A stretch of 63,764 nt of DNA, filler included. It is 7 parts of 7 records of this genome, joined end to end, with 100 filler letters (N's around TTAATTAATTAA, not from the genome) between each part and the next. Parts side by side here need not be neighbours in the genome. Positions count along the whole stretch, not along the records: positions 51,465 to 63,764 come from DRR723986_24991; 6 more parts are not named here. One strand, given 5' to 3'. The notes under the pieces are model-generated. The model saw only the letters and a list, made by a program, of their open reading frames with translations. It was not told the origin of the DNA and searched no databases. The position numbers were made by a program, and so were the translations under genes. This document shows positions 17,346-63,764 of this stretch, one piece after another. Each line of letters starts with the position of its first letter. Position 1 is the first letter of the stretch.

Positions 17346-17357
17346 GCGATGACGCGC

Positions 17358-18557
17358 TTACCCCCAGATCCCCTTGATCAGCATTTCGGCCCCGCGCCCG
17401 GAATGGAAGCCATCGACAATGCGTTGACGCCCGGCACCGGACAGGCGCAGGGCGCGGTCCGGGTCATCGGCAAGGGCGGCAATCGCGCGGGCCAGATCCT
17501 CGGGCGATTTGGGCGGCACCAGAACCGCATCCACCCCGTCGCGGATCAGTTCGGGCACACCGCCCGCATTGGTTCCGATGGTCGGGGTGCCGCAGCTCAT
17601 CGCCTCCATCAGGGCGACGCCAAGCGGTTCGTGCCAGCTGGCCAGAACAAAAAGATGCGCTGCGCGAATTTCGTCACGCACCCGGCCGGCATCGACGGCC
17701 CCAAGCAGGTGGACGTGATCGCCAAGGCCAAGCTCTGCAATGCGCGCATCCAGCACCTTGCGATAGCCCGATCCGCCATCGTCATCCTGACCGGCGATCG
17801 TCAGTTGAACGTCGCGCCCCTGATCCAGCAGCAAACGGACAGCGCCCATAAGATCCTGATGCCCTTTGACAATATTAAGCCGTCCGCAGGAAAACAGCCG
17901 CAGGGGCTCGCCTTCTGCGACGGGCCGGTAGGGGCCTGTCGGGGTCAGAACATCGGTGTCGACGCCCATAGGCTGGATGAACAGCCGCTCAGGCAGATCG
18001 TCGGGCATCTCGGCCAGCATCTCGGCCTTCAGCTTTTCGGTGATGATCGAGGCAAACTCGGCATGGCGCCACTTGAAGCGCTGGCCGGGTCCGTAGTCCG
18101 ACAATGGCCCGTGCAGGGACAGCGAATAGCGCGGTCCTCCCATGCGGCGCGCAATTGCGGCGATCAGCGCTGCGCGCCCGCAGGAATGGACATGAACATG
18201 GCCAATGCCGCGCGTCCGGCAATGGCGGATCAGACGCTGCGCGGCGGGAATGGATACCGCGATGTCCTTGACCATCGCCTTGCCTGCGCTGCGTGCCTCG
18301 GACAGCAGATCGCCCATGGGCAACCGGGGCAGGGCGGCAAGCCCCGCCAGCACATCTGCCTTGCCCAGATAGGTCGTGCGCGCCATCGCCTGTTCAGACC
18401 AGTCATGGGCGACCAGACCGGCGGGCGGCATTCGAGTGGACAGCAGGTCGACCGCGATGCCGCGCTTTTCCAGCTCCGCAATCTCTCGCCAGAAAAAGAT
18501 ATGCGTCTGTCCGGGAAATTGCGGCACCAGATAGCCGAGTGTGCGCGTTTCGCTCAT
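17358..18557 (-). CDS. Glycosyltransferase family 4 (EPS biosynthesis)
   Basis: FPGQTHIFFWREI, GRLNIVKGH and EPLGVALMEAMSCG motifs. Confidence 0.9.
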   Translation of the reverse strand: MSETRTLGYLVPQFPGQTHIFFWREIAELEKRGIAVDLLSTRMPPAGLVAHDWSEQAMARTTYLGKADVLAGLAALPRLPMGDLLSEARSAGKAMVKDIAVSIPAAQRLIRHCRTRGIGHVHVHSCGRAALIAAIARRMGGPRYSLSLHGPLSDYGPGQRFKWRHAEFASIITEKLKAEMLAEMPDDLPERLFIQPMGVDTDVLTPTGPYRPVAEGEPLRLFSCGRLNIVKGHQDLMGAVRLLLDQGRDVQLTIAGQDDDGGSGYRKVLDARIAELGLGDHVHLLGAVDAGRVRDEIRAAHLFVLASWHEPLGVALMEAMSCGTPTIGTNAGGVPELIRDGVDAVLVPPKSPEDLARAIAALADDPDRALRLSGAGRQRIVDGFHSGRGAEMLIKGIWG

Positions 18558-18634
18558 GACCTGATTTGTCCTTGTCTGCCCGGCTCAAACCTGCGGAAAA
18601 ATGCAAGTGACGTCAAAGACAAAAGGGGGCTCGC

Positions 18635-19456
18635 ATGATCTCGGTGATCATTCCGGCCCATAATGAGGCGGCGCTGATCGGCGGATGCCTGGAGGCGCTG
18701 TTGGCGTCAGATCCGTGCCCCGGCCCGGTGGAGGTTATCGTGGTGGCCAATGGATGCGAGGACAGGACAGCAGAGGTAAGCGCGACTTTCGGCGAGGCAG
18801 CGCATGCAAGAGGCTGGGCCTTTCAGGTGCTGGAGCAGCCAGCGCTTGGCAAGGTCGGCGCGCTGAATGCCGGTGACGATGCGGCAAGCCATCCCATGCG
18901 CGCCTATCTCGATGCGGATGTGACGGTGTCGCCAAAGCTGTTGCCGGGGATCATGACCGTGCTGGACAAACCTCAGCCGGCCTATGCCAGCGGACAGGTC
19001 CGCATCACGGCAACAGGTCGGGTCAGCCGTCGCTACGCACGGTTCTGGGCGCGGGTCCCGTTCATGTCGCGCGGGGTTCCGGGCTGTGGGATCTTCGCGG
19101 TGAACGCGGCCGGGCGCACCCGGTGGGACCGGTTCCCGCCGATCATCTCGGACGATACCTATGTGCGGCTTCTGTTCCGCCCCGAGGAACGGCATCTGGT
19201 TCCGGCAAGCTACGACTGGCCAATCGCCGAGGGCCACGCGGCGCTGGTGCGGGTGCGTAAACGACAGGATGTGGGTGTGGCCGAGATCGCGCGGGATTAT
19301 CCGCAGCTGTTGGCCAATGACGACAAGGACCGGATCAGCTTCTCCGGTCTGCTTTGGCTGATGATCTCTGACCCGATCGGGTTTCTGACCTACGCCGATA
19401 TTGCCCGGGCCGTGCGCCGCGCACCGGACCCGGATGGCTGGAGCCGGGGAAGATGA
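18635..19456 (+). CDS. Glycosyltransferase family 2
   Basis: SVIIPAHNE and YLDAD (DxD) motifs. Confidence 0.92.
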   Translation: MISVIIPAHNEAALIGGCLEALLASDPCPGPVEVIVVANGCEDRTAEVSATFGEAAHARGWAFQVLEQPALGKVGALNAGDDAASHPMRAYLDADVTVSPKLLPGIMTVLDKPQPAYASGQVRITATGRVSRRYARFWARVPFMSRGVPGCGIFAVNAAGRTRWDRFPPIISDDTYVRLLFRPEERHLVPASYDWPIAEGHAALVRVRKRQDVGVAEIARDYPQLLANDDKDRISFSGLLWLMISDPIGFLTYADIARAVRRAPDPDGWSRGR

Positions 19457-20823
19457 TCGCGCGTATTCGCCATTTCACCCATGGCCAGGGCTTGATGAAT
19501 CGCGCGATGCGCAGTGCGGGCCTGAACCTGTTCGGCTTCGGCTTCTCGCAGATATTGCGACTGGCCTCGAACCTGATCCTGACGCGGCTTTTGTTCCCCG
19601 AGGCGTTCGGGGTCATGGCCATGGTTTCAGTGTTCCTTATGGGGCTCGCAATGTTCTCCGATGTCGGCGTCGGCCCGGCGATCATGCAGTCCAAACGCGG
19701 CGATGACCGCGATTTCCTGAACACCGCCTGGACGATCCAGATCATTCGCGGCGTCAGCCTGTGGCTGGTGGCCTGCTCGTTGACCTGGCCCATGGCGGTC
19801 TATTTTGGGGAACCGGATCTGATCTACTATCTGCCGGTCGCGGCCCTGACGCAGCTGGTCCTGGGTTTTACCCCGACCCGGCAAGAAACCGCGAACCGGC
19901 ATTTGCGCGCGGGGCGTGTCACCGTGCTGGACATGGGCACGCAGGTGATTGGCGTGCTTGTCGCGGTCGGATTGGCATGGGCGATGCAGTCGGTCTGGGC
20001 GCTGGTGATTTCCGGGGTGATATCGGCCATCGCGCAGGTTGTGCTCTATGACCTCTTCCTGCCGGGAGAGCGCAACCGCTTCCGGTGGGAGCGCGCCGCG
20101 TCGCAGGAGCTGATCCATTTCGGAAAATGGGTGTTTCTAAGCACCATCGCGGGCTTTGCCATCGGGCAGGCCGACAAGGTGGTGATCGGCGGCTGGCTGT
20201 CGACCCATGATTTCGGTATCTACAATATCGGCTTCTTCTGGGCGTCCTTTCCGTTCCTGATGGGCTCGGTCGTTGTGCGCAAGGTGATGATCCCGGTCTA
20301 TCGCGAAAGCCCGCCCGGCGAGAGCCGAGAGAATTTCCTGCGGCTGCGCAAGCTGCGCCTGCTGGCCACGGCGGGGATGATTTTAATCGCCATGGTGCCG
20401 GCCTTTTGCGGGCAGTGGCTGATCGAGACGCTGTATGATCCGCGCTATCTGGCCGCCGGTGGGATGGTGGTGCTGATATCGGTCGTGCAGCTTCCGGCCA
20501 TCATTGGCGTGACCTATGATCAGGCGGCGCTGGCGGTTGGCGACAGCAAACGGTTCTTCGTGCTGGCGGTAACGCGGGCTGTCTTCGTGGTGATTGGGAT
20601 GGTGGCGGGGATCACCTGGTTCGGCTTGCCCGGCGCGCTGGCGGGGCAGGGGCTGGCGATGCTGGCGGCGCATCCGGTGGTGGGTTGGCTGGCGTCCCGC
20701 AGCCGGGCCTGGGATCCGTTGCATGACCTGATCTATTTTGGCATCGGCGGTGGATTGTCCGCACTGGCACTTTGGTGGAACTGGCCGCTGATCCAGGCAT
20801 TGGCCGCGATCGGACCGGGGTAA
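19453..20823 (+). CDS. Wzx-type oligosaccharide flippase
   Basis: LTRLLFPEAFGVMA...FSDVG, many TM segments, ATGA overlap with the GT2 gene. Confidence 0.9.
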   Translation: MIARIRHFTHGQGLMNRAMRSAGLNLFGFGFSQILRLASNLILTRLLFPEAFGVMAMVSVFLMGLAMFSDVGVGPAIMQSKRGDDRDFLNTAWTIQIIRGVSLWLVACSLTWPMAVYFGEPDLIYYLPVAALTQLVLGFTPTRQETANRHLRAGRVTVLDMGTQVIGVLVAVGLAWAMQSVWALVISGVISAIAQVVLYDLFLPGERNRFRWERAASQELIHFGKWVFLSTIAGFAIGQADKVVIGGWLSTHDFGIYNIGFFWASFPFLMGSVVVRKVMIPVYRESPPGESRENFLRLRKLRLLATAGMILIAMVPAFCGQWLIETLYDPRYLAAGGMVVLISVVQLPAIIGVTYDQAALAVGDSKRFFVLAVTRAVFVVIGMVAGITWFGLPGALAGQGLAMLAAHPVVGWLASRSRAWDPLHDLIYFGIGGGLSALALWWNWPLIQALAAIGPG

Positions 20824-46750: not shown

Positions 46751-47578
46751 TCACATTGTACCCAATAAGGCTTCCTTGTGCTTGATTAACTGGCCCAATT
46801 TCTCGTCAAGATATTTGCCGTTTTTCCCAAAATGAATTTCCCGATGTACGTTGGGGGTTATTGCTGCGCAGTTAACGGGGTGATCCAGTCCTCCGTCAGA
46901 TAACTTCTTGATATGATGTACTTCTAGGTATGGTTGGCCATCAGGTTTGAAAAATGGGGCTTTCTCGCCAGTGAGTTCACAGACTCCCTCAGCACGGCGA
47001 AGCACGTATTCACGAATTTCAGAGCTACGTTGTCGCCTAATCTGTTTAGCCATCCTCCAATTTGTTGTCTCGGTTGGTACAACGGCTGCAAAGGCAGATT
47101 GCCGTAAGTCCTCAAATGTTTTGGTGGGGACAGGCTTGATGTTTTCATAGCCCTCATCAGGGCCTTCTGCAGTAGAAGGGACAAGATTAAAACGGATGGT
47201 CTTGCGTAGATCTCCATTTACATCAGGTCCACGGGCGAAATCTATCGAAGCGCATTCAAATTCCCCCAAGAACTCCACTGGTTGCCCTTTTCCAATTGCA
47301 CGGAACAAAAACAATTGTTTCCCATCTGCTATGTGGTCTCGGATTGCTTTGTTGCCACGGAGAAACTGCATATCGCCAACTTGGCCTTGGCCAGTGTACA
47401 GAAACACACCATCGTCTTGCTGCCAGCCGTCCTCATACCCGTATGCTTCACCGCTATCGCCAGTGAAGAGGAATATGTACGGATGAGAGCCACTCGGTGA
47501 AATACCGCTTTGTCGTGTACCGCCATATTTGTCGTGAATATCTTTTGATCGACTATATTTCTGGCCAACGACAAACAT
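46751..47578 (-). CDS. SRA-like domain plus HNH endonuclease (McrA/ScoMcrA-like, modification-dependent)
   Basis: IH..YGG.RQSGISPS..PYIFLF, YEDGW, YTGQGQVGDM...GNKAI; HNH CELT...YLEVHH...GGLDHPVNCAAITPNVHREIH; ATG 1 nt after the upstream stop. Confidence 0.85.
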   Translation of the reverse strand: MFVVGQKYSRSKDIHDKYGGTRQSGISPSGSHPYIFLFTGDSGEAYGYEDGWQQDDGVFLYTGQGQVGDMQFLRGNKAIRDHIADGKQLFLFRAIGKGQPVEFLGEFECASIDFARGPDVNGDLRKTIRFNLVPSTAEGPDEGYENIKPVPTKTFEDLRQSAFAAVVPTETTNWRMAKQIRRQRSSEIREYVLRRAEGVCELTGEKAPFFKPDGQPYLEVHHIKKLSDGGLDHPVNCAAITPNVHREIHFGKNGKYLDEKLGQLIKHKEALLGTM

Positions 47579-47579
47579 C

Positions 47580-48572
47580 TCAGTACCTCTGCTTAGTTGG
47601 GATAACCCCACGGACCCCGCCACGGGGGTTATCAACATCCCCATCACGCCTTGGGATCAGGTGGAAGTGAACATGGAAGATTGTTTGACCTGCTGACTGA
47701 CCTGCATTGATGCCGACATTGAAGCCTGTAACTGTGTGATCGTTATCTAGGATCGCCTGTCGCTGTTCATGTAGCATTGCCTCAATGGCATTACGTTCTG
47801 GCTGATATAGGTCGAAGTAATCAGCCACGTGACGCTTTGGGATGATTAGAGTATGATGCTCCGTGACAGGGAATGCGTCCTTGATAGCATAGCATAGCTC
47901 ATTCTCAGATATGATACGCCCAAGGCCTAGCTCACAGAAGGTACAACCCGCTTCACGGTTGTTGTAGCTGTCCAAGACACCCCTAAAGTCCGTGTCGTCA
48001 TTATCCCGCTTGTTGGTGTTACATGTCACACAGAGTGCTTGGAAGTTGCTAATATCGTCAGGCCCACCCTTAGACCTGGGGATAATGTGGTCGATGTGGA
48101 GTGCGGCCTGACCCTCATGCGCTCCGCATAATTCACAACGATGTTTTGCACGTTTAAGGACCTTGTAGCGAATGCTGCCAGACACATAGCCACTGTCGGC
48201 GCCTCTGTGGCCCCATATAGCCTCGCCACGTTTGCCTATGTATGCGTTGATAGCACTGTCGCACATGTCCTGCAGGGCAGCTCTCTGGGCCTCAGTATGG
48301 ATTACCTGCGTGAGGCGATAGCCGGTAATCTGACGGCCTTCCTTCATTGGCTCCACGACACCATTATTGGTCAAGACTTTGCCAACCATAGCTTTTGTGC
48401 GAAGCGAATAATATTCAACTTGCGACTGGTCGTAAGCCAAAAGACTTTTGGCAATCTCCTCTGTAGTGGCCTGGCCACCATTTTCCAACAGAACCTTCAG
48501 CATTACCGGCTGATAGATATGCGACATACGCATCTGATGCTTGATAAAATATTCTAGCTGGCAAGCGGTCAT
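47580..48572 (-). CDS. wHTH/SBD-like - HNH endonuclease - HIT hydrolase fusion
   Basis: MSHIYQPVMLKVLL N-domain; CELCG...IDHIIPRSKGG...NFQALCVTCN..K; CTFC...FPV...HTLIIPKRH...AGQTIFHVHFHLIPR. Confidence 0.9.
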   Translation of the reverse strand: MTACQLEYFIKHQMRMSHIYQPVMLKVLLENGGQATTEEIAKSLLAYDQSQVEYYSLRTKAMVGKVLTNNGVVEPMKEGRQITGYRLTQVIHTEAQRAALQDMCDSAINAYIGKRGEAIWGHRGADSGYVSGSIRYKVLKRAKHRCELCGAHEGQAALHIDHIIPRSKGGPDDISNFQALCVTCNTNKRDNDDTDFRGVLDSYNNREAGCTFCELGLGRIISENELCYAIKDAFPVTEHHTLIIPKRHVADYFDLYQPERNAIEAMLHEQRQAILDNDHTVTGFNVGINAGQSAGQTIFHVHFHLIPRRDGDVDNPRGGVRGVIPTKQRY

Positions 48573-51464: not shown

Positions 51465-51685
51465 TATTTACGAATGTTTCGAATTTTGGGGAAGTTTACA
51501 AACCGGCCCGAATATGCCAAGGGAAATACCTGGACAAAGTAGTCTTCGGCTGTTCATCCGTGAAGAGGAAACAAAGTGTCTATCTTGACCACTGTGTTGC
51601 TGAAATCTCAATTTAGACTGGTGTGTAAACAGACAAATTGTGCTTCTGGTCAAGGTGACAGCAGGGCAGAAATAGCTATATCTCA

Positions 51686-52705
51686 CTATTCTATCGGTAA
51701 CGCCTCGTGCATTCTCTGCGCAAACTTACGTACTTCTTCCTCCGGCAGATCAACTCCGAATGCTTTCCTCCGCATTGGAAAATGACGGTATACAATTATT
51801 GTTGGTGGGCTTCGATAAGGCTTAACAAACTCTACGTCTGCAATATCTTTCAGGGGAATTATCGTTGGCATGTACATCGACCATTTATTGTCACACGTTA
51901 AAGTCTGCTTATGTGTGTCCAGACACAAAATATGCTTTCTGCCCTTAATGAGAATGTAAGTAAACCAGCACAAGAGCATGTGACCGAAGAGTAATGAACC
52001 ATTGCCCCCTTTTTCATAATACAAATAGAACAAGAACATATTCATAAAACTGATATAAACCGCATCAAATATTCCGAGTGTTCTTGGCCGCAGTATATCT
52101 ATGCTGGTTGTATGCAGACCATTGTTTTTGTCTGTTGAGTTTACATTTGATTTAACGTAACCTTTCCCAGACTGCTTTGCCCTTCCTTTTTTCGCCCTTG
52201 ACATATCAAGAGTATTTTCAGCTGAAGAAGGGTTTGCGTTTTTTGACAGCCAGGTGATTCGCCCCATCTTTACCACCTTCACATTAATCTCCAGAGCTTC
52301 AAACTTGCTCGCAATTTCATCGATTGCGTCTTTACTTTTAATTTTCACTCCATACTCATCGGTTCCGTTGAGGCGGATGGAAAAATAGCGTCTTTTGGTT
52401 TCAATGAGGACAAAGGAAATGGAAGAGTAAGGCACGGACTTTGTTACCTCCCAAAAACGGTAACCATTCTTTAGGATCAACTGTTTTGCTGTGAAGACCA
52501 AGCTATTCTGTCTTTCTGCCGCAAACCTTAGGACTAATGGACCGATAATCGCGTTAGGAAATATTAGGAACAGGAATTCCAGTGGACCGTAGATAATAAG
52601 AATTATTGAAAGCGCAAGGAATATTAAATAGATCCTAACTGAGTTGGTTTTCGCAGAATCAACTCTAAGGTGACCGTTAACATCATAGTAGTTTCCGTGC
52701 GGCAA
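51686..52705 (-). CDS. Membrane protein with two TM-hairpin plus PH-like modules
   Basis: GGAGG RBS before TTG; two TM pairs each followed by a beta-rich segment (SVPYSSISFV; IIPLKDIADVE). Confidence 0.6.
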   Translation of the reverse strand: MPHGNYYDVNGHLRVDSAKTNSVRIYLIFLALSIILIIYGPLEFLFLIFPNAIIGPLVLRFAAERQNSLVFTAKQLILKNGYRFWEVTKSVPYSSISFVLIETKRRYFSIRLNGTDEYGVKIKSKDAIDEIASKFEALEINVKVVKMGRITWLSKNANPSSAENTLDMSRAKKGRAKQSGKGYVKSNVNSTDKNNGLHTTSIDILRPRTLGIFDAVYISFMNMFLFYLYYEKGGNGSLLFGHMLLCWFTYILIKGRKHILCLDTHKQTLTCDNKWSMYMPTIIPLKDIADVEFVKPYRSPPTIIVYRHFPMRRKAFGVDLPEEEVRKFAQRMHEALPIE

Positions 52706-53002
52706 TTGATTCCTCCATTATTAATTGCAAAACTGTGACGCCGGGTCACAGTAGGCGATGATTACGCAATAAGACTCACCTTGTTACAATACAAACAAGG
52801 TATAAATGTAATATAACACAGTCTGTTGAAAATCAGATGTGTCCTGCCTCAACGTGTTTTCATCGCTACGCAGTCGCTAAACCTATGGCCATTTTAAGTT
52901 CTTGCACCGATCGTGAGGGTTATCCGTATAACACTTTAGGAACAACTACTTAAACCGGCGCTGCTCATGATTCGTCAAATATCTTTACATCTCTGCAATA
53001 GA

Positions 53003-53317
53003 TAAACACACTGAGTGCACAGGGTACAAAGATTGCAACAACATTGCGGCGCCGTCTTGCACCTGCCAAACATCTTCTACATGACCGAAGCTCCGATAAA
53101 CAGGGATGGAAGCGCTTTCGTGCGCGACTCCGTAATCACCGCCTTGTCCAAAACCATATAGCCAAGGAACAGGGATTGAAACTGGGCACTGTTAACATAA
53201 TGCGTGTCAGTTCCTGCGGTCCTAGACCTTATAGCCGAGAATGCTCTGTGACATCATCTGCCTCATCCTTGCCGTGTAGCGTCCAAGGCCTTATAGCCGA
53301 TTAACATGGATTGCAAC
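53003..53317 (+). CRISPR. Orphan degenerate CRISPR-like array (about five 37-bp repeats, 32-39-nt spacers)
   Basis: Repeats at 53003-53039, 53077-53113, 53146-53182 (GTCCAAAACCATATAGCCAAGGAACAGGGATTGAAAC), 53219-53241 (truncated) and 53281-53317 (GTCCAAGGCCTTATAGCCGATTAACATGGATTGCAAC); canonical ATTGAAAC end. Confidence 0.75.
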
Positions 53318-53396
53318 TTGAAGCATTTAGACTTAGATGTAATAGACGAGACTTAACCAGACAACTTCAACTTGCATTGGCATCAAGCAGCATGGG

Positions 53397-53849
53397 TTAA
53401 AGATAGAGCCGCTTAACACTGGAGTAATATAGATGCAGTTGGCCTTGGGAATTTCTGAGATTAATGTAAATGTAAGGATACAAGCCATGCATAATAAATG
53501 TCCACTCTCTCTGATTGTCAAGGCGAACTGTCACTTGTCTTTGAGCTCTATCATTTGTAAGCCACATAGATCCTGCTAGTCCGAGGCCTGGGTCTGTCGT
53601 CAAAGGTGGAGACTCGAAAGTTGTGTCGTCAACTTGCACCGTCAGCGTGTTGTGATCATAGCCGTTCTCAAAAAACAGCAAGATGGAATCCTGTGCAAGT
53701 ACGTTTGGATCAAATATCCAATCATCTTTTAATTGCTCTTCGGTTGGCTCCTTCGTGATTTTCAAATCACCAAAGACAAGTACCAGGGACAACTCACACT
53801 TGTTTTGTGGTGTCACACATCCTGAAATCAGCAGAATGCAAAAACTCAT
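53397..53849 (-). CDS. Putative lipoprotein
   Basis: Lipobox-like LISGC; start uncertain (ORF open to 53966). Confidence 0.6.
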   Translation of the reverse strand: MSFCILLISGCVTPQNKCELSLVLVFGDLKITKEPTEEQLKDDWIFDPNVLAQDSILLFFENGYDHNTLTVQVDDTTFESPPLTTDPGLGLAGSMWLTNDRAQRQVTVRLDNQREWTFIMHGLYPYIYINLRNSQGQLHLYYSSVKRLYL

Positions 53850-54158
53850 GATAATTGTATAGCTCAATAAATGACCTGCCGTTTTACTGGCACATTTTTT
53901 TGTAAACCTGTTGCAAGACAACTGTTGACATTTCAACAACATATTATTATTCCTCGCTCTATGCATCCGGCATTAGTTATTCTGTCGGTTGGAGTAAATC
54001 ATCAAGTTCTTCCAAAAATACTTTCCTGAACTTCTTTAAACTTGCCAACAACGCCTAAGTAAACTCGACATCAAAGCATGTTAGCTGAACTGGAAAATAC
54101 GCCCCGGTTTTCTTACTCCTGGCGGCAAATTACAAGTTTTTCAAGCATCTGACTGTTA

Positions 54159-54247
54159 CCCCCAACCCAACAACTAACAAAAAACTCAAGCAAGCGCACC
54201 GCAGGTGAACGCGTTCAAAGAAGCGTACCGCAGGTAGACGCGCTCAA
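54159..54247. repeat. Dispersed REP-like element: CA-rich leader plus two 29-bp-period hairpin units
   Basis: CCCCAACCCAACAACTAACAA then AAGCGCACCGCAGGTGAACGCG and AAGCGTACCGCAGGTAGACGCG; another copy at 58573. Confidence 0.8.
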
Positions 54248-54366
54248 GTAATACACTTTGCCAAAACACACTAAATCCTGCCAGCCCCATTCATTCGACC
54301 CTTAAAGTTGCACCGAATGAATAAGGCTACTCTGCATTACACAGTCCCATAAATTACTGTTCATTC

Positions 54367-55050
54367 CTAATCACATTGCGGCAAAACATAAACATCAAAA
54401 GGGGCCTCAGGAGTACCAAAGAAGTACAACTCATTGGCCACGAATAAATCGTAATGTGAGCGCTCTTTAACACCCCGAAATTCATTCTCAAATGGTGACT
54501 TTTGTGGTGGAGCGCCTTTGACCGTTGGAAACTCTAGATCCATCTTTAACTGAAACAAAAAATGCATACTTTGGCCGACATACGACGAAGGAGCTTCATC
54601 TTCCATCTGCCAGACTGGGGAACCATACTCTCCGAAAATTAACAAACCCCTGGACTTTCCTGAGACGACTTCACGGTATTCAATGACTGGCTGGTAAGAA
54701 TCACGCAATTCTCCTAACTCTGTTTCAAAGACACATATTTGAAAGTTCTTTTGGTATGCACGAAGAAAACCCTCAGGTATATCGGCTTTTGCAAGTTGAA
54801 CACTTAACATTTCCGGAATCAGGTGACCTTGGTCTGCACAGGAGGTACAAGCAAATACGGCCAGTGTCTTTCCACACCAAGTGTGCCCTCCTTCAAATGC
54901 GAGCTGAAAGAAGAAAGTTTGCTGACTGCCGCACAGTTGACAGTTTTGTAGCATCAAATCTATAGGAAGTTTTGGGATGCCACCAACAAATGAATTGGCG
55001 CGATTTGATTGACTGGATTCTTTTAGGTAGAGAATTGTGTTTTTGGGCAT
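54367..55050 (-). CDS. YwqG/DUF1963-like (PDCD2-like CxxC) hypothetical protein
   Basis: SFVGGIPKLP...CQLCG..QTFFFQL, repeated GSPVWQ...MHFLFQL. Confidence 0.6.
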   Translation of the reverse strand: MPKNTILYLKESSQSNRANSFVGGIPKLPIDLMLQNCQLCGSQQTFFFQLAFEGGHTWCGKTLAVFACTSCADQGHLIPEMLSVQLAKADIPEGFLRAYQKNFQICVFETELGELRDSYQPVIEYREVVSGKSRGLLIFGEYGSPVWQMEDEAPSSYVGQSMHFLFQLKMDLEFPTVKGAPPQKSPFENEFRGVKERSHYDLFVANELYFFGTPEAPFDVYVLPQCD

Positions 55051-55267
55051 TGATGCTTGTTCTCACTTCTGGTTTTAACAACTGCATTTGACACCATCGT
55101 ACTTTGTCCAGACAGACAGCAGAGTGCAAGGTTGTTTTGTCGCACTTACAGTGTAACAGATAAGAATTTGTTTCATTATTTTAAACTGCAATCACCGAAC
55201 TAAGGCATATTCTGAATGACTAAACAGATTCGCTTCGTTTCTACATTAAGTTATCCTCACCATCAAT

Positions 55268-55723
55268 TCACACTAAGTCTAATCGCTCCAGAAATTCCTC
55301 AAAAGTTCTTGTTGCCATTATCCAGTGCAACTCCAGTGTACTTGGGTTGCAGAAATGGGTTTCTGAAGGCGATTCAGTTCGATAATCTAAAGCAATGAAA
55401 CCATCTGGTTCAGTTTCACCAATTATTACACATTGGTGCACATCTATGTCACGGGGACTGTATTTTTCACTTTTCTCACCGAGAAACCTTGTAAGGCTCT
55501 CTTCTGTTTCTTCTGTGAAGTCGCTACTCTCAACAATGGTATCGTAATCATACAGGCATGGCCACGGGTATTCAACAGGGGGAAAAACCGTCTCAAAGAG
55601 CTCGACTTGTTCAGGCTTTGTCCACCTACCTGACGAACCTTTTCCACCAGCCAGCCACCGACCGGATTCAATACATTTTTGAATAGAAACAGGTATTGAC
55701 AGATTGTTTATAGTCATTGACAT
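55268..55723 (-). CDS. SMI1/KNR4 (SUKH) family protein
   Basis: VIIGE...GFIALDYR...P and W..A.RTFEEFLERL C-terminal signature. Confidence 0.7.
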   Translation of the reverse strand: MSMTINNLSIPVSIQKCIESGRWLAGGKGSSGRWTKPEQVELFETVFPPVEYPWPCLYDYDTIVESSDFTEETEESLTRFLGEKSEKYSPRDIDVHQCVIIGETEPDGFIALDYRTESPSETHFCNPSTLELHWIMATRTFEEFLERLDLV

Positions 55724-55882
55724 TTGTCAATATGGAGTATCAATATTAAAGATGGAGATAATGGATAGCCGTCGGATTTACACGGTTTGACTCTACAACG
55801 TAGTGGTAGGTCTTTGAGCGAATTGGTATTCGATGGACCACCTGCATATCTGATTATGTCGAATTGTGAGTTTCATTCTTTA

Positions 55883-56248
55883 CTATTCCAATTTATTCTT
55901 GTTCTCCTCCGCCTCCAGTTTAGCAAGATATTCATCCATGGACATTCCAGATTTTGCAAAACCTTCCAGAGTGTCAAAAAACAGGTGATTGAGTTCGATG
56001 TTTTGCGCTCTAACTTCCTTCCAGGGTTCGGAGAAAATGACAATCTTGTATGCCAGATGTTTACGAATGCCAAAGAGTTTACCTAAGAAATAGACGGTGG
56101 ATTGTTGGCTGTGCCCGGCACGTTTTAATACCTCGATCATCGAGCTAACAAACGTGATTTTCTCGGGTTCATCTGAGCTATTGATTACATCTTTCAACGT
56201 ATCGAGGCACGGATCATACCGGTCGAATGAATTAGATTTGTCGCTCAT
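55883..56248 (-). CDS. Hypothetical protein
   Basis: Clean 121-aa ORF 8 nt downstream of a co-oriented gene. Confidence 0.65.
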   Translation of the reverse strand: MSDKSNSFDRYDPCLDTLKDVINSSDEPEKITFVSSMIEVLKRAGHSQQSTVYFLGKLFGIRKHLAYKIVIFSEPWKEVRAQNIELNHLFFDTLEGFAKSGMSMDEYLAKLEAEENKNKLE

Positions 56249-56256
56249 TGTTACTA

Positions 56257-56790
56257 CTAGTTTAGTTTATTTGAGTTTCCACTTACGAGATTCGCCCTAT
56301 GGAGTTTTTCAAAATAATTCTTGGGAGACTTAACAAACTCATACGCTTTGGACTGTAGAATTGCATCCATTAGAACGGCCTCATTCACCGGGGCAATTAT
56401 TGTTGATTCAGAATAAACCACTCCATAATCGAGCTTACCGCATATGTCAACAATGCCAGCTAGAAACTGTTTGGAGATTGCTCCAACATCAATCCTAATC
56501 GAAAGACTATCAATGAAGTCATTTTCGATGAACATCACAATTTGATTCCCGTCATCTGTTCCCCAGAAAATTGCTTTGTCCGACCACCCCTTATACTCGT
56601 AAATTTTGGCCTTCCGATTCAGTAGGCAAGAGTTCACTATTGCCCGCACCGCATCGGCACTTTGTTTTTTCCTACTCCACAAGTCGGAGGTCTCGCATAG
56701 TTCTCCGAGAGGCCTTTTAGAAGTTTGGTCCATTTCTTCATTGGGCCTTTCAATTGGCACAATCTCGACACTGAACTGCCAGGTAGCCAT
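56257..56790 (-). CDS. Hypothetical protein (MATWQF-type)
   Basis: AAGGAG RBS; W...WG..DGN.I...IRID pattern. Confidence 0.7.
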   Translation of the reverse strand: MATWQFSVEIVPIERPNEEMDQTSKRPLGELCETSDLWSRKKQSADAVRAIVNSCLLNRKAKIYEYKGWSDKAIFWGTDDGNQIVMFIENDFIDSLSIRIDVGAISKQFLAGIVDICGKLDYGVVYSESTIIAPVNEAVLMDAILQSKAYEFVKSPKNYFEKLHRANLVSGNSNKLN

Positions 56791-57041
56791 TGAACACTCC
56801 TTTCGGTCCGAAGATTAAGAAAGTCATTTCGAAGCCACATTCTGGAATTGAATCATTCTATTGATCAAGCTTATTGTAAAAAACGTTTATGCAAAATATC
56901 AAAAAGCATGTTAGTACGGCTGCACACCTACCACAATTTGACCAGACAATTTATGACGATTGGCTCTATGGATCTTTTACGTTAAATTGAAGCTCCAAAT
57001 GCAATAGGACAAAGTAGAGGTCCGGGACAGGGTGAAACTCA

Positions 57042-57947
57042 ATGATTCAAGTGCGGTGTGACATATGTTTAATCGTAGAGGTTCCACTCAATGAGAGCCT
57101 TAAAGTAGATGGGCTGCGGTACTGTCCCGATTGCCTTGATCATACATTCGCTTCGATTGATGAATTCGACGGCCATGAAGTAGAACAGGAAATAGATCCG
57201 ACAACCTGCGCACTTTGTGACAATGATAACGGGCAAGATCCACACCCTTCTATAGATGAAGTTCCTTTGTGTCAAGAATGCCTAAAAAATGCGCACGACA
57301 AACAAATTCCCGCTTGGGTTAAGGGCATGTTGGTTGGCATACTGGTGTTGGTGGTTTGTGCCGTTATATATAACTACCGTTTCTACCAGGCCTACTCTGA
57401 ATTTGCCGAATACGATGAATCTATTAGTAAAGGCGAAACAGAAAGCGCGATTGCAGCACTTGAAAAGGCCTATACACTTGTTCCCGAGTCGTCCAAACTC
57501 GCAATTCTTCTGAGTGACGCCTATTCTTTAAGACAAGCAAAGTCTGAAATTCCGACTCGTTCAACTGAAAGCTCTGCAAATTCATCTGCCCCAGTAGCAA
57601 AAGGTGAATCTGCGGAGTACATTATTCGAGCGGACAGCGCTATAGTGGCTGGGGATTACGAATCATTTTTGGGGCAGAGTAAACTGGAACTCCGGCAAGA
57701 TCCGCGCAATCCACAACGGATTATTATTCTTGCATCAGCATACGCTTGTATGCAGGCATCAACTCGCAAGATCGCATATGCAGACAGTAGTCGCGTTTAC
57801 ATGCGGCGTGCATTGGCACTTGCGCCTGGGGATCAATCCCTGCGTAGTTTTGCCAATCAAATTGAATTCCGCTTGTATTCAAACAGAATTCTAACGAGCC
57901 CAGCGTTTCGAAAGAAGTTCCCCAATGGCTGGAAAGTAATTCCCTGA
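57042..57947 (+). CDS. Zn-finger (four CxxC) - TM - TPR-like membrane protein
   Basis: CDIC, CPDC, CALC, CQEC; one TM; AIAALEKA...PES and RRALALAPGD TPR-like helices. Confidence 0.7.
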   Translation: MIQVRCDICLIVEVPLNESLKVDGLRYCPDCLDHTFASIDEFDGHEVEQEIDPTTCALCDNDNGQDPHPSIDEVPLCQECLKNAHDKQIPAWVKGMLVGILVLVVCAVIYNYRFYQAYSEFAEYDESISKGETESAIAALEKAYTLVPESSKLAILLSDAYSLRQAKSEIPTRSTESSANSSAPVAKGESAEYIIRADSAIVAGDYESFLGQSKLELRQDPRNPQRIIILASAYACMQASTRKIAYADSSRVYMRRALALAPGDQSLRSFANQIEFRLYSNRILTSPAFRKKFPNGWKVIP

Positions 57948-57954
57948 GAGCACG

Positions 57955-58482
57955 ATGTTAGTAGCCAGACAAGCTATTTCCTTTTTAACATTTCCGGGTA
58001 CAGTGGTTCACGAAGCGGCACATGTGTACTTTTGCAAGCTGTGCAACTTGCCGATTCTCGACGTTCGGTACATCGCAATGGGCAACTTCGATACTGGCTA
58101 TGTTCTGCACGCTGAAACTGATAATTTCACGTCGATATTTTTGATTACATTCGGACCTTTTCTCCTGAGTTCACTGTTGTGTTTTTTAGTTTGTTTACCT
58201 GCCTATCTGCCTTTTAGCTTCTTTGATGCCGGCCAACCCTTGTCGTATGTTCTGGTCTACCTTGGTGTTGCAATTGGTATGCACGCCATTCCGCCGCATT
58301 CTGAATCACACCAGGTTTGGGCAAAGGCACTTAGTGAAGTCAAGCGCGGTCATATTCTGGCAATCCTATCGCTCCCGTTTTTGATTCTGTTTTACTTTAT
58401 TAATCTTTTGCGGATAGTGTTTGCACATACCTTCTATGGAGTGGCAATTGGACTTGGGATCCCGATGTTAATCTGGGGCTGA
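57955..58482 (+). CDS. Membrane zinc metalloprotease-like protein (HExxH; M50-like/DUF3267)
   Basis: FPGTVVHEAAH, GYV.H, GP, several TM helices. Confidence 0.75.
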   Translation: MLVARQAISFLTFPGTVVHEAAHVYFCKLCNLPILDVRYIAMGNFDTGYVLHAETDNFTSIFLITFGPFLLSSLLCFLVCLPAYLPFSFFDAGQPLSYVLVYLGVAIGMHAIPPHSESHQVWAKALSEVKRGHILAILSLPFLILFYFINLLRIVFAHTFYGVAIGLGIPMLIWG

Positions 58483-58572
58483 GCAGGTGGCTTTCTGTTA
58501 AATCATGATTGACTCTCAAGCGTCCAGGTTTTTACGACCTTGTCACAAGACTTCAAACTAATCAACTCGTCC

Positions 58573-58627
58573 CCCCCAACCCAACAACTAACAAGAAGCT
58601 CAAAAAGCGTACCGCAGGTAAACGCGC
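58573..58627. repeat. Second copy of the dispersed REP-like element
   Basis: CCCCCAACCCAACAACTAACAAGAAGCTCAAAAAGCGTACCGCAGGTAAACGCGC. Confidence 0.8.
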
Positions 58628-58776
58628 CCCAAATCACAAGGGGTTAAACCATAAACCGCCAGACACCAGGCCCCAATGACTGAGACTGGAATCCAGCGGC
58701 AAACTCTTAAACACGATATCGTCTATTCGAGAACTTCAATTCGAGAGCCCCTAAACTGCAAGCAAATTTGCAAGCC

Positions 58777-59706
58777 TCACTCCGATGCGGCGGGCTTTTG
58801 ATCACCAAGATGCGGGATGTCCGGATTCGGAGTTAAGAGTTTAATATCAAATGCGTCAAATGTTAAAGACTCAATTTTGATCATGTGCAGATAGTCCTCC
58901 TCTGCGCTGTCCTCCACTGAATTGCAAATTGATTGCTGGAAGGCGACCGTGATGCCGTCAATTGTGCGGAAGTCCGAATAGAAGTTGGCGGCCGAAACAA
59001 AGTCGAATTGATCGCGCACGGTGTACTCAACGAGTTCAACTAAACCCGACTCTTTGTTAACCCACAAGATATATTGATCGTTCTCCGAGTGTGGTTCAGC
59101 CTTGCCCCAGGTGGCATATACCAAATCGTAATCCTTGTTGTTTAACTGTTTGCTGCCTGCATAACTCATGATTGGCGCACTTAATATTCGGAAAGGTAGC
59201 TCCGTAAAGTACTGCTCTGCGGGCAAAATAAATTCGATCATGTCGTCCTCCTCAAACACTAAACCCTCATCAGGCGTGATCTTGTAGGCTTGCCAGGACT
59301 GCAGCCCCCAGATTGTGCCCTGCCTGTCACCTTCCAGAAACTCCACGCGCGCGTTAAAGGTACCGTTCTGAAATTGGAAGCGAATTTTATCCTCGTTGTC
59401 CCAGGGCACCAGCCCCGCCAGCGATGCCAAAAAACTGTCCCAATCGTCGCGCATTATGATTTCCGTCGTCTGGTGTTTACGCCAATTGTTAAGTCCATGC
59501 CGCTGCGCCGCGGCCTCCAAAATTGTGCGTCCCTTCAGTGCCAAATCCGTAGAAATTCCACTTTCCTCAATTTGACTTGTGCGCAAATCGGCCGTAGCAC
59601 ATGCCGTAAAAAGTGCCCCGGAGAGCAACAAAACCAGCAGGTTTAAAACAATCTGCCGGACTTGCAGCCCGCGTAGATGCTGATGTTCCCGTTCTTTTTG
59701 ATGCAT
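58777..59706 (-). CDS. Putative lipoprotein (DUF6503-like/LolA-like fold)
   Basis: Lipobox FTAC, AQRHGL..W, YFTELPF, DQYILWVN, FRTIDGI. Confidence 0.65.
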   Translation of the reverse strand: MHQKEREHQHLRGLQVRQIVLNLLVLLLSGALFTACATADLRTSQIEESGISTDLALKGRTILEAAAQRHGLNNWRKHQTTEIIMRDDWDSFLASLAGLVPWDNEDKIRFQFQNGTFNARVEFLEGDRQGTIWGLQSWQAYKITPDEGLVFEEDDMIEFILPAEQYFTELPFRILSAPIMSYAGSKQLNNKDYDLVYATWGKAEPHSENDQYILWVNKESGLVELVEYTVRDQFDFVSAANFYSDFRTIDGITVAFQQSICNSVEDSAEEDYLHMIKIESLTFDAFDIKLLTPNPDIPHLGDQKPAASE

Positions 59707-59734
59707 AAGTATCTTCCAATGAGTGTTGATTGAA

Positions 59735-59754
59735 ATAGTTGACCGGTTGACTAT
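59735..59754. promoter_or_regulatory. Candidate TetR operator upstream of the lipoprotein gene
   Basis: Imperfect palindrome ATAGTTGACCGGTTGACTAT containing the TTGACC half-site. Confidence 0.55.
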
Positions 59755-59910
59755 ACATTGGCTAAAAATTTGGGCCAGTTGCAGTATCCACCACGATTGG
59801 CCCTGTTTTGCTGTTAAATTGTTAATTCGTACAAGTTGAAGCCAGGTGCTAAATCGGCAGCGAATAACACACTTTTTAGGCACACCACAGACGAGCGTGA
59901 ACTTAAACAG

Positions 59911-60519
59911 CTACGCAGCCAGACCCGTAATTAACTTAATTCCGTTGCGCGCATACGTTCGCAGCAGTTTCGGATCATTTTTAGTTTTAGCAATCAGGAA
60001 AGCGCCCTCCCAATAGGCAAAAAGCATGCGCGCCGTGGTCTCTACGTCCAGTTGCAGCTTAAGTGAACCGTCGTCAACTGCCTGCTGCAGGGCGCCACGA
60101 ATGTAGTTAACATGTAGGTCCAGGAAGTGTTCAACGGATTCGCGAATCTCAGGACTCTGGGTGCTGACTTCAATTCCAAGGTTTCCAAAGGGGCAGCCGG
60201 GCACAAAACCATTTTTATTGCAGTACTCCACCTGTATGCCGCCGACATATTCAAAAAGTTTGGCAATACGCGCCAGCGGCGCCAGCGTTGTATCGTTAAA
60301 AATGGGTTTACAGACCGTTTCGTCCGTGTGTTTCCACCAGGTCTCAATCGCGGCGATGGCCAGATCCTGCTTGCGCTCAAAGAAGTGATAAAAACTGCCT
60401 TTATTGACGCCGGCACGCGCACACAGCGCAGCCACACCCACCGAGTTGTAGCCGTTATGCCAGATCAACTCCATCGCAACCTCTATCAGGCGCTCACGCG
60501 CATCACTCGTCCTACCCAT
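59911..60519 (-). CDS. TetR-family regulator (NemR-like)
   Basis: GYNSVGVAALCARAGVNKGSFYHFF HTH; GCPFGNL motif. Confidence 0.93.
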   Translation of the reverse strand: MGRTSDARERLIEVAMELIWHNGYNSVGVAALCARAGVNKGSFYHFFERKQDLAIAAIETWWKHTDETVCKPIFNDTTLAPLARIAKLFEYVGGIQVEYCNKNGFVPGCPFGNLGIEVSTQSPEIRESVEHFLDLHVNYIRGALQQAVDDGSLKLQLDVETTARMLFAYWEGAFLIAKTKNDPKLLRTYARNGIKLITGLAA

Positions 60520-60558
60520 TCCGCTGACCCATTGTTGGCTTAAATGTGCTCGTTTTTC

Positions 60559-60574
60559 TTGACCACACGGTCAA
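60559..60574. promoter_or_regulatory. Candidate TetR auto-operator TTGACC-N4-GGTCAA
   Basis: Perfect 6-4-6 inverted repeat 40 nt upstream of the tetR start; resembles the NemR box geometry. Confidence 0.7.
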
Positions 60575-60873
60575 ATATAGAATTTTGTTGTAATGCTGCC
60601 AAATTTTTTTGAGTTATCTCCTCAAAACCTGGCTTTCTGTTTGGGAATTTGTGCTAATGCAGATTTTTGAATTGAGGGAAAACCTACTCTCATTATCGTA
60701 CGAATCAATTCGATTTGACCGTGTGTTTTAACAAGCTGATGCACTCAGCGGCTTCAGTGAGTTTAAGATTAAACACCAGCACATTGGCTGAGTTGTTGGC
60801 ACCCCAGGTCTGACTGGCATTCCTGGGCTGTGCATTAAAACGCATGTTTAAAATGTATCAGTTCGGTCAGTTT

Positions 60874-60921
60874 AAACAATAAACACCCTGCCGCCGAGGA
60901 ATCTACTTCGGCAGCAAGGTG
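60874..60921 (-). terminator. Rho-independent terminator
   Basis: Minus-strand stem CACCTTGCTGCCGAAG...CCTCGGCGGCAGGGTG followed by TTTATTGTTT. Confidence 0.65.
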
Positions 60922-60975
60922 CGAGTCATGCGTAACATGTCAATCAACTTAACATGTTTAACTACTAACGAGCTA

Positions 60976-61434
60976 TTATTCAGTTGCAGCTGGACAAGGG
61001 AAAACGCGTACGGAATTCACCGGACGGCCACCTTCTTCTCCAATCTGAAACTCAATTTCTACGCAGAAGCCACCGTCCTGGGCGCGCTTTAATTCTTCCA
61101 GCATCGCATCGGTTAACTCCGATGGGTGGTAGAAGTAATTTGTTAATGGCGTTGGCTCACCTGGCTTCGGTGCTTGCCCCGTGGCGGTTGACTCAATACA
61201 AACCTGTGTGGTTCCATCGCGATTTGTTTTAATACTGCCGATGCGTCCAGCGATGGTGTACACTTCTTTATCGGCAACCTGAGCCCAAAATGATTCCTGA
61301 ATTTTTGGGTCGATATTAGCGCGTTCAAACATTTCACAAATGATATTGGTTGGCACACCGGTGAAAGCCTGAAACTTCGAAATCACGCGGTCCGGAGCAG
61401 GTACTTCCGGCACCGCATTTTGGGTATGAGACAT
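60976..61434 (-). CDS. Hypothetical protein (possible OB-fold C-terminus)
   Basis: GGAGG RBS before ATG 61434; beta-rich C-terminal half. Confidence 0.65.
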   Translation of the reverse strand: MSHTQNAVPEVPAPDRVISKFQAFTGVPTNIICEMFERANIDPKIQESFWAQVADKEVYTIAGRIGSIKTNRDGTTQVCIESTATGQAPKPGEPTPLTNYFYHPSELTDAMLEELKRAQDGGFCVEIEFQIGEEGGRPVNSVRVFPCPAATE

Positions 61435-62047
61435 GGTAGTCCTCCAAAAATTGATGAGTAGGTATAAAATACAGTTAGACACCACATTGGCGAATGCGGC
61501 TTGGTATCTTAACGGTAAATGCAATAAGAGCTAACAGTCAATGACATTCAGCCGAACAAAGAGCAGGTGCATGTGGTGCCCGATGTTTGGCGTGGAATAA
61601 ACATACATTTAAACACAAGACAATGCAACTTATTTTTGCATCTAAATTGTAGCACTCAGTTGAATTAACATATTCGCGACTCCGTCTACTAAAGCGCCTC
61701 CCGGATTTTTAGCGTGTTTTTGCGCAAAAGTGGCCATTATTTAAAACTCCTGCCAGATCTCTGCGCCCCCTTCACCAGGTTCGGTGGCTTGTTCTTTTTG
61801 AGGATTTTGTTTGTCTCTGGGTCGGTAGCCGGAAGTCATTCAGTCTGTTTGAAGTTTTTGACACTCTGAGTTTGATTGCACACACTGCCGGCGGCGGCGC
61901 ATTCGAACAGCTCAAATGTTAGCAAGATTTTCTAAATTTAATTTGATCCGGGCAAACAGGGTACCGGCAATCAGTCGCGGGACCGCGTCAGATTGTCTTC
62001 GCGCAGTCAACCTTCCAATCATCTTTGAATACATACAGACAAACACT

Positions 62048-63562
62048 ATGACTAAAGAGCAGAGCCGCAGGAATTTCATTCGTTTGTTGGTCCTGGGCGG
62101 AGCAAGTCTGTACCTGCCCGCCTGCACAGATACTCCCAAGGACGTCACTCATGACACCGAAGAGGTTGGCCCAACACGAGCCACTGAAACTCCGGCACCC
62201 GACTCAACAACCGTAGAGCAAAAAGTCCAGGAGATTATCGAAGTTTGGGACACGGATGAAGTCGCTTTCCTGAAACAGGATCACCAGGATTTCGCGCGCT
62301 ATCAAGTTCGATTTAACAAGGATGTTGTGCACACTCCACTTGTGATTGCACTCTGTTACTCAACCGCAGGTGTTGTCAGAGCAGTCAAAATTGCACAACA
62401 GGAAGGCCTTAAGGTTGCGATCAAAAGCGGCGGGCATTCTTTTGAAGGTTTTTCATCAAACGATAATGGTCTGGTGATTGACCTTAGTTTTATGAATGCA
62501 ATCACGTGGGACAATGATAATGCGACAATTCAACCCGGCTGCACGCTGTCGCAACTATACGATGAACTCCTGCCTAAGAATAGATTAATTCCGGCCGGCT
62601 CCTGCGGCGGAGTTGGAGTTGGCGGCTTAACACTTGGCGGTGGTTACGGGTTCTTCAGCCGCAAGTTCGGCCTGACCTGCGACAATCTACTGGGTTTAAC
62701 AATGGTCGATGCTGGCGGGCAGGTCCACGAAGTTGATGGAGAAAGTGAATTGCTCTGGGCCTGCAGAGGCGGCGGCAACGGCAACTTTGGAGTTATCACA
62801 GAGTTTAAGTTTAAAACACATCCGGCACCCAAGACTTTCCAGAGTCATCGTTTTAAGGCATACAAGTTAACACCCGACCGCGCCAAACTGCTGCTCGAAG
62901 AATGGTTCCTATTTAGCAAGGACTTGCCTGATACATGTTTCTCGGCATTTGTGTTAAACGGCAAAACTTTAACACTTTTAATTACCAACTATGCGGAGCA
63001 CCTTGCCGACCTGCAAAAGATGCTCGACAGATTCACGGAGTTGTGCGACAAGAGTACGATCGGCACACATGTGACTCTGGCACGCGCGCTCAAAGTCTAC
63101 TACGGTCGTCAGGATCCCTTGTACTTCAAGAACGCTTCGGCCGGCCTTTACCAGTCTTTCGGCGATATTGCGGGCTGCATAGACATAGTTCTGGAGAAAG
63201 TGATTCAGTCTAAAGGTTTGATTTACCAGGTCAACACGCTGGGCGGCAAGATCACTGCAGCCGAGTTTGAAGCGCAGTCTTGTTATCCGCACAGGCAGCA
63301 GCTGTTTCTCTCGGAACTGCAGGCCTACTGGGAGCGCGACGCGCATGGCACGTTACTCAAAGAGCGCTTTGCCGAAGTACAAACGATTTTCGCTAACCAT
63401 GGAATTGACAAGCAGTACCGCAATTACCCAAACCTGACCTTCTCCAACTGGCAGCAGGCGTATTACGGCAATAATTATGAGCGGCTGCAGCAGGTCAAAC
63501 AAAGATATGATCCGGGCGATCTGTTTCAACATCCGCAGAGCGTTTCTACTGTTTCGAGTTGA
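62048..63562 (+). CDS. Tat-exported FAD-linked oxidase (BBE/VAO family), probable lipoprotein
   Basis: SRRNFI Tat motif then LPAC; SGGHSFEG, AGSCGGVGVGG, LWACRGGG, C-terminal YRNY...YYG.NY.RL..VK..YDP. Confidence 0.92.
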   Translation: MTKEQSRRNFIRLLVLGGASLYLPACTDTPKDVTHDTEEVGPTRATETPAPDSTTVEQKVQEIIEVWDTDEVAFLKQDHQDFARYQVRFNKDVVHTPLVIALCYSTAGVVRAVKIAQQEGLKVAIKSGGHSFEGFSSNDNGLVIDLSFMNAITWDNDNATIQPGCTLSQLYDELLPKNRLIPAGSCGGVGVGGLTLGGGYGFFSRKFGLTCDNLLGLTMVDAGGQVHEVDGESELLWACRGGGNGNFGVITEFKFKTHPAPKTFQSHRFKAYKLTPDRAKLLLEEWFLFSKDLPDTCFSAFVLNGKTLTLLITNYAEHLADLQKMLDRFTELCDKSTIGTHVTLARALKVYYGRQDPLYFKNASAGLYQSFGDIAGCIDIVLEKVIQSKGLIYQVNTLGGKITAAEFEAQSCYPHRQQLFLSELQAYWERDAHGTLLKERFAEVQTIFANHGIDKQYRNYPNLTFSNWQQAYYGNNYERLQQVKQRYDPGDLFQHPQSVSTVSS

Positions 63563-63764
63563 GCGCGAAGTGGCTTGGGGGTGGTAACGGCTGTATTACT
63601 GTTGACCGGTCTGATTGGGTCGGGGGGCTGTAGAATCCCGGGTTTGAGATGGAGTGCGATGTGTCTTCAAGGGGCATGTGGTTTTGCCCTGGTGGTTTTT
63701 GTTGAATTTTGGCGTTTTGGTGGTTGTTTGGGAGGGGATTTGGGGTTAACGGGCACTGAAAGCT

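Follow-up and report, generated by a model that had tools for sequence, protein, structure and literature searches.

The arrays closest to the locus analysed here belong to type I-B systems, in which Cas6b cleaves the 37-nt repeat behind its position 29, so that the tag AUUGAAAC remains (PMC3479195; this and the other sources are cited for what their available text states). The arrays of Methanococcus maripaludis and Clostridium thermocellum, as presented there, have the same 37-nt repeat ending in this 8-nt tag, and spacers of 32-41 nt. The array described here differs from them in having neither a leader nor cas genes on its contig, in repeats that are 5-16 states off the family profile, and in the truncation of one unit. 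Isolated or orphan arrays, such as CRISPR3 of P. aeruginosa (PMC13142298) and several arrays of two relatives of the source organism (contigs C10 and C35 of genome G001, C14 and C21 of G002), are alike in lying far from cas genes and in having repeats of a family whose system is encoded at another site. However, isolated arrays that work have retained a leader and repeats that are nearly identical, and the present array has neither.

The CreA/CreR and crlRNA mini-arrays (PMC8501985, PMC9458426, 10.1101/2023.03.10.532045, PMC10120712) resemble the locus in their divergent repeats, the lack of a leader, a first repeat that is the most diverged, and a full-handle repeat that is followed by a 5'-only repeat. 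Known crlRNAs, as covered in the available text of PMC10120712 and 10.1101/2023.03.10.532045, for the most part comprise two repeats, are located in cas loci or phages, and target sites that match the seed next to a PAM. A CreA/CreR-type array consists of two divergent repeats around one spacer, whereas the present array has five units, four spacers and no adjoining cas locus on its contig; no seed-plus-PAM target or creT-like partner was identified for it, and its handles do not appear to be preferentially kept. The CreTA-like use that the initial annotation had considered is at odds with this layout of five units without cas genes on the contig. Phage-borne crlRNA arrays (10.1101/2024.10.29.618823) and a prophage array in G002 also contain several divergent units without the cas genes of their own effector, but the present array lacks a phage context and a terminator, and its spacers are mutually unrelated and of normal length. 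It most likely represents no new RNA system but a familiar kind of locus, namely a degenerate orphan array of the type I-B family.

Units of the array and their repeat family

The window, i.e. the whole stretch of DNA that was analysed (63,764 nt), consists of contigs joined with runs of N, and the array lies on the last of them (51465-63764; 12,300 nt, 45% GC). The initial annotation had described 37-nt units with characteristic endings, and both positions and endings were reproduced. The same is true for the identities between units (29/37 for R3 and R5, 23/37 for R2 and R3, 18/20 for R4 and R5) and for the unique spacers of 37, 32, 36 and 39 nt, the last of these with R4 taken as 23 nt. R1 and R2 do not have the GT start that had been cited for repeats of this type.

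53003..53039, + strand: R1, the most eroded unit, with family likeness limited to the last ~14-17 nt
53040..53076, + strand: spacer 1, 37 nt
53077..53113, + strand: R2, degenerate, handle with two changes
53114..53145, + strand: spacer 2, 32 nt, the shortest length in the relatives
53146..53182, + strand: R3, the sole unit with an intact ATTGAAAC handle
53183..53218, + strand: spacer 3, 36 nt, the modal length in the relatives
53219..53241, + strand: R4, the first 23 nt (5') of a repeat, cleavage site and handle gone
53242..53280, + strand: spacer 4, 39 nt when R4 is taken as 23 nt, start uncertain
53281..53317, + strand: R5, the last and best preserved unit, handle with one change
52706..53002, + strand: upstream intergenic DNA, the expected leader site, without leader homology

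A further unit at 52919 was dismissed, as it matches at no more than 20/37 and is irregularly spaced. An 86-codon ORF that spans the array (53044-53304) has a sub-threshold Pfam match only and was treated as spurious.

Relatives of the source organism were reached via a FAD-oxidoreductase gene on the array contig, which is 69% identical in G001 and G002 and at most 50% identical at the other 78 of 80 loci. The contig and the two genomes also have in common intergenic repeats, an IS end and a second gene (60% identity). G001 and G002 are probably Bacteroidota, as judged from a T9SS sorting domain, DUF3127 and the relatives of the FAD protein. Both contain long arrays of a 37-nt repeat that ends in ATTGAAAC (for example L102:1554-1590). 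The fetched regions hold 397 repeat copies in 125 variants, and the 3' motif has 283 matches in G001 and 112 in G002. One array per genome follows a type I-B operon, cas8b-cas7-cas5b-cas3-cas6b-cas1-(cas2-like ORF)-cas4, in which the short cas2-like ORF was called by eye. The array in the window is a member of this family, and the Cas6-processed class 1 origin proposed earlier is thereby borne out: a related repeat family does exist in the lineage, where it forms long canonical arrays next to a cas6b-containing type I-B operon.

A covariance model was made from 45 repeat variants of the family; its E-values are rough. R5 matches the best family variant at 31 of 37 positions (E=6.9e-8) and R3 at 29 (E=2.7e-5). 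R2 agrees with a G002 repeat at 29/37 and is akin to one middle-segment variant that is present in arrays of G001 and G002; since its model score (E=0.035) ranks under one chance match on another contig (E=0.0083), its assignment rests on spacing as well. R4 scores at E=1.3. R1, with 20/37 to the best family repeat, was not detected by the model at E<=10; across ~12,000 background positions of the contig, none equalled its 3' 17 nt in score against R3 and R5.

The weakness of R1 and R4 in the family model and the fragmented assembly could be taken as signs of chance similarity or an assembly artefact. We regard this as extremely improbable, because the model, although built from other genomes, ranks R5 first and R3 second in the 63.8-kb window, the spacing of the units is that of canonical arrays, and the long adjoining ORFs are intact. 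In addition, among 37-nt segments separated by 55-160 nt, the best pair of the contig has a score of 29, or 22 with the array excised, against 21-26 in 200 of 200 dinucleotide shuffles; for 20-nt segments, the best pair scores 18, against at most 17 in the shuffles. The comparison with shuffled sequence that had been suggested earlier thus came out in favour of a genuine array, with none of the 200 shuffles reaching the observed pair scores.

The family appears to be rare. Among 254 genomes of the order, two have arrays of the 37-nt repeat and a further 18 have one lone match each; among 401 genomes sampled from the class, one has such arrays, and it is again G002. The repeat match is thus lineage-specific. 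In the other two of the four genomes of the taxonomic family, neither an array nor Cas6b was found, which makes loss within this family plausible, although the assemblies may be incomplete. Matches to a 15-nt motif in G003 and G004 are single sites and not arrays, and the same holds for 13 viral matches to a 3' motif, which are without further copies. Patterns derived from the window's own repeat variant had no match in GTDB genomes, viral contigs or JGI metagenomes. As the canonical family pattern was nearly as blank (none in JGI metagenomes, one lone match in viral contigs), this reflects the rarity of the family and is no proof of a private local variant.

Leader, handles and wear of the units

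Intact arrays of the relatives have a conserved 200-nt leader, which gave eight matches at E<1e-53 (six in the profile, two independent). The array in the window has none: the best match of the leader profile in its contig has E=8.2 and is located away from the array. A near match to what we take to be a Bacteroidota-type promoter element is present at 52980, 23 nt 5' of R1; it is a single, weak match. No + strand terminator was found after R5. In folding, neither single units nor the whole array beat shuffles (z -0.46 to 1.38), and Rfam returned two weak matches only, both outside the array.

Wear was scored as the number of rare states, defined as states present in fewer than 5% of 375 canonical copies. 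The units R1 to R5 have 16, 9, 7, 13 and 5 of them, whereas 367 of the 397 copies of the relatives have at most two. In R4, three rare states are in positions 1-23 and ten in positions 24-37; the missing 3' part was presumably lost by a deletion of ~14 nt. Wear of the array is heaviest at its 5' end (R1, R2), whereas canonical arrays are mostly degenerate at the 3' terminal repeat. With regard to the latter, the degenerate terminal repeats of the arrays on G001 C35 and G002 C21 are nearly the same.

Divergence from the G001/G002 profile may overstate decay, since R3, R4 and R5 have a derived T12 and G16 in common, which suggests that the repeat of the host differs. R3 and R5 further have A5 in common with R2. 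Part of the difference from G001 and G002 is therefore probably the host's own repeat variant, and not decay.

The initial annotation had considered retained 3' handles, but their retention is poor. The 8-nt handle is intact in one of five units (R3) and mutated in three of the four full units, with one change each in R1 and R5 and two in R2, and nothing of it is left in R4. R1 has also lost C17 and G28 of the stem. The positions C17-C18, A23-C25-A26 and G28-T31 are kept in R2, R3 and R5. The private changes of these three units, 12 in total, fall seven times into positions 1-16, twice into positions 17-29 and three times into the handle. Neither the handle compared with other sites (3/24 vs 9/87, Fisher p=0.72) nor the central core compared with sites elsewhere (2/39 vs 10/72, p=0.21) shows significantly fewer changes, although with so few changes the power is low.

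Taken together, the locus is a five-unit piece of the 37-nt I-B/III-A Cas6b family, without a leader and without cas genes on its contig, and it is probably an inert, eroding remnant. As to its history, the lineage would have placed arrays at several cas-free chromosomal sites, and one such array would have lost its leader. With the leader, spacer gain would have ended, and probably leader-driven transcription too. Point changes would then have built up, and part of R4 would have been deleted. Of the two fates that had been offered for the array, decay fits better, and repurposing is the weaker suggestion. As a decayed orphan array, the locus is a record that a rare lineage once had, or elsewhere still has, an I-B/III-A system, and its importance is small.

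Cas genes, spacers and possible guides in trans

The absence of cas genes from the contig, as stated in the initial annotation, was confirmed: no Cas family was found among 13 ORFs compared with Pfam, ten with PHROGs and ten with NCBIfam, and with 20 proteins from the relatives, of Cas and prophage origin, as tblastn queries, the best match in the contig was 29 residues long (E=0.06). The cas-free reach around the array extends over 1.5 kb upstream, to the contig end with its IS end, and 10.4 kb downstream. Such a setting is normal in the lineage, because no cas1 or cas6b match was found on the contigs of several arrays of the relatives (G001 C10 and C35; G002 C9, C14 and C21). These cas-free arrays adjoin housekeeping genes, at sites that match between G001 and G002. 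Those of G001 C10 (L137:9224-17578) and C35 (L139:6324-11497) are long and have unusually mixed repeats, with 46 variants in 113 copies and 26 variants in 71 copies, respectively.

G001 and G002 have one cas1 each, and each has, apart from the I-B operon, a type III-A operon with its own Cas6b. The III-A operon (L179:9244-17932 on G002 C29; L180 on G001 C2) encodes cas10, csm2-5, Csm6 and Cas6b and is preceded by a SAVED-domain gene. It has no cas1, and no array adjoins it in the fetched flanks; the III-A system is presumably supplied by the I-B-type arrays.

The spacers of the array (32-39 nt) are inside the 32-41-nt range of the 381 spacers of the relatives. Their GC content (0.50-0.59) is close to that of the relatives' spacers (0.51), and the flanks have 0.40-0.41. 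The comparison with phage databases that had been suggested earlier yielded no phage match: none of the four spacers matched phages or plasmids, which may reflect unsampled phages of a rare lineage. The 18-20-nt spacer cores had two matches in four scans of viral contigs, and these extended to just 20/37 and 24/42. Compared with the 381 spacers of G001 and G002, there was no match either (best 17-21 identities). Among the spacers of G001 and G002 themselves, only one matched fetched DNA outside an array.

A functional reading would require that the locus is transcribed and cut in trans by the Cas6b of the host at R2, R3 and R5, so that one or two divergent guides (spacer 2, between R2 and R3, and spacer 3, behind the R3 handle) would steer the I-B Cascade to an old invader or, in the manner of CreR/CreA RNAs, to the repression of a host promoter. 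A two-pair stem beside an AAYAA loop may suffice for Cas6b. The CC/GG pair and the AAC-A segment beside the cut site are kept in R2, R3 and R5. R3 bears the exact 8-nt tag known for Cas6b products (PMC3479195), and spacer 3 is the sole spacer that would bear a perfect 5' handle. The arrangement R3-spacer 3-R4 mimics CreA, in which the first repeat keeps the last 8 nt and the second keeps the 5' part (PMC8501985), and the 5'-heavy erosion is reminiscent of the typically more diverged first repeat of CreA (PMC9458426). Isolated arrays are able to work in trans (PMC13142298), and Shmakov et al. (PMC10120712) point out the difficulty of detecting targets that do not lie in cas loci.

Nevertheless, we consider guides in trans unlikely. 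The crlRNAs described in the available text of PMC10120712, PMC8501985 and 10.1101/2023.03.10.532045 are located within or next to cas loci, or else in phages, whereas there is no cas gene on the 12.3-kb contig. The array has five units and not two, and the survey in PMC10120712, in its available part, found only 12 mini-arrays with at least three repeats. Three of the four full-unit handles are mutated, R4 is without a cut site, and no terminator is present. Finally, a search for 10/10 seed matches (positions 1-5 and 7-11), which covered the contig and, in the relatives, the fetched I-B regions alone, yielded none. The window contains a single such match, for spacer 2 at position 48391; it falls on a different contig and was rejected. 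A more specific proposal can be made for a chromosomal, cas-distant, multi-unit crlRNA locus, in which Cas6b would cut R2, R3 and R5, and the divergent guides would direct I-B Cascade or III-A Csm to regulate genes outside cas loci, in a Bacteroidota lineage with repeat-targeting prophages that bear rival divergent arrays. This we hold to be quite doubtful. If guides were made, this would turn the locus into a regulatory array of several units at a distance from cas genes, a class that would be missed by current surveys of cas loci and phages.

Apparent prophages in a relative and the surroundings of the array

Prophage(s) in G002 appear to have integrated into type I-B CRISPR repeats, with a contig joining that we infer. 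On contig C2 (L127:12072-14475 and 16408-19738), a Cas6b gene, a divergent array, and terminase and portal genes come after a stretch composed of leader, repeat, spacer and half repeat. Contigs C8 (L133:777-2551) and C9 (L131:776-2550) carry large serine recombinase genes that end in a matching 3' half repeat. The 5' half next to the Cas6b, terminase and portal genes has 25 nt, and the 3' halves at the recombinase gene ends have 21 nt. The prophage Cas6b is 40% identical to the host I-B Cas6b, and one G002 spacer matches a recombinase gene over 34/34 nt. Prophage integration into a CRISPR repeat has been described for the Streptococcus phage AP1.1 (10.1101/2020.10.09.333658). The apparent G002 prophage, with its own Cas6b and array, is a better target for follow-up than the eroded array.

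By analogy, the array in the window could have been left or carried by a mobile element, either as a scar of repeat-targeting prophages, with R1 and R4 as half repeats, or as an element-borne mini-array. The half repeats of G002 mark prophage ends, and what is left of R4 is a comparable 5' half; an IS end is 1.5 kb off, and the flanking genes are without a homologue in the relatives searched. Yet the contig is devoid of phage, integrase and Cas6 genes, R1 and R4 have foreign halves that are unlike the prophage arms, and the order of the half repeats is wrong for bracketing an insertion. The signature of the prophage array also differs. Its five units all have the 3' motif, two of its spacers (27 nt) are near duplicates of each other, and a strong terminator is present; in the 5' part, 51 of 80 sites are changed, compared with 26 of 80 in the window array; the prophage units were chosen by their 3' motif, which biases this comparison toward a 3'-kept and 5'-changed pattern. 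An origin from a mobile element is thus very unlikely, and an inert remnant of a host array remains the preferred reading.

The genes on both sides of the array are as follows.

51686..52705, - strand: 339-aa ORF with a weak match to a bacterial PH domain (PF14470, E=0.0018, below cut-off); not cas
53397..53966, - strand: 189-aa ORF, Bacteroidota-lipoprotein-like (feature score 0.92-0.93, recognition sub-threshold, a lead only); not cas

The former has no homologue in five related genomes, and the latter none in the relatives searched. None of ten contig proteins matched PHROGs, and none of the ten was present in the protein collection. The first 36 nt of the contig (51465-51500) are identical to an IS end in G002 C51, where the next ORF encodes an HTH_Tnp_1 transposase; we take this IS to belong to the IS3 family. 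That the assembly breaks off here, at 1.5 kb from the array, is probably due to the IS end.

Farther from the array, an uncharacterised 182-aa protein (60976-61524, - strand) has a G001 homologue (60% identity, L129:15837-16469) that immediately adjoins the cas-linked array on its trailer side; in G002, this site is taken by a gene with a restriction domain. Short intergenic repeats at 54159-54243, 58573-58627 and 61750-61850, which are partly tandem (two 29-nt copies) and have look-alikes in G001 and G002, are REP-like elements of the lineage. Right after R5, 33 nt (53331-53362) are 88% identical to G002 C73:320-352 (E=0.004, one genome), where no unit is nearby; this is probably chance or a small intergenic motif in common. 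Four small co-oriented ORFs (54367-56790, - strand) are without a family match, and two of them look by eye as if they were of the immunity type, which is our assumption. On another contig of the window, two adjoining ORFs (46751-48572, - strand) have HNH-like motifs, and one of them also a HIT-like motif, as seen by eye; they are possibly a restriction or defence pair.
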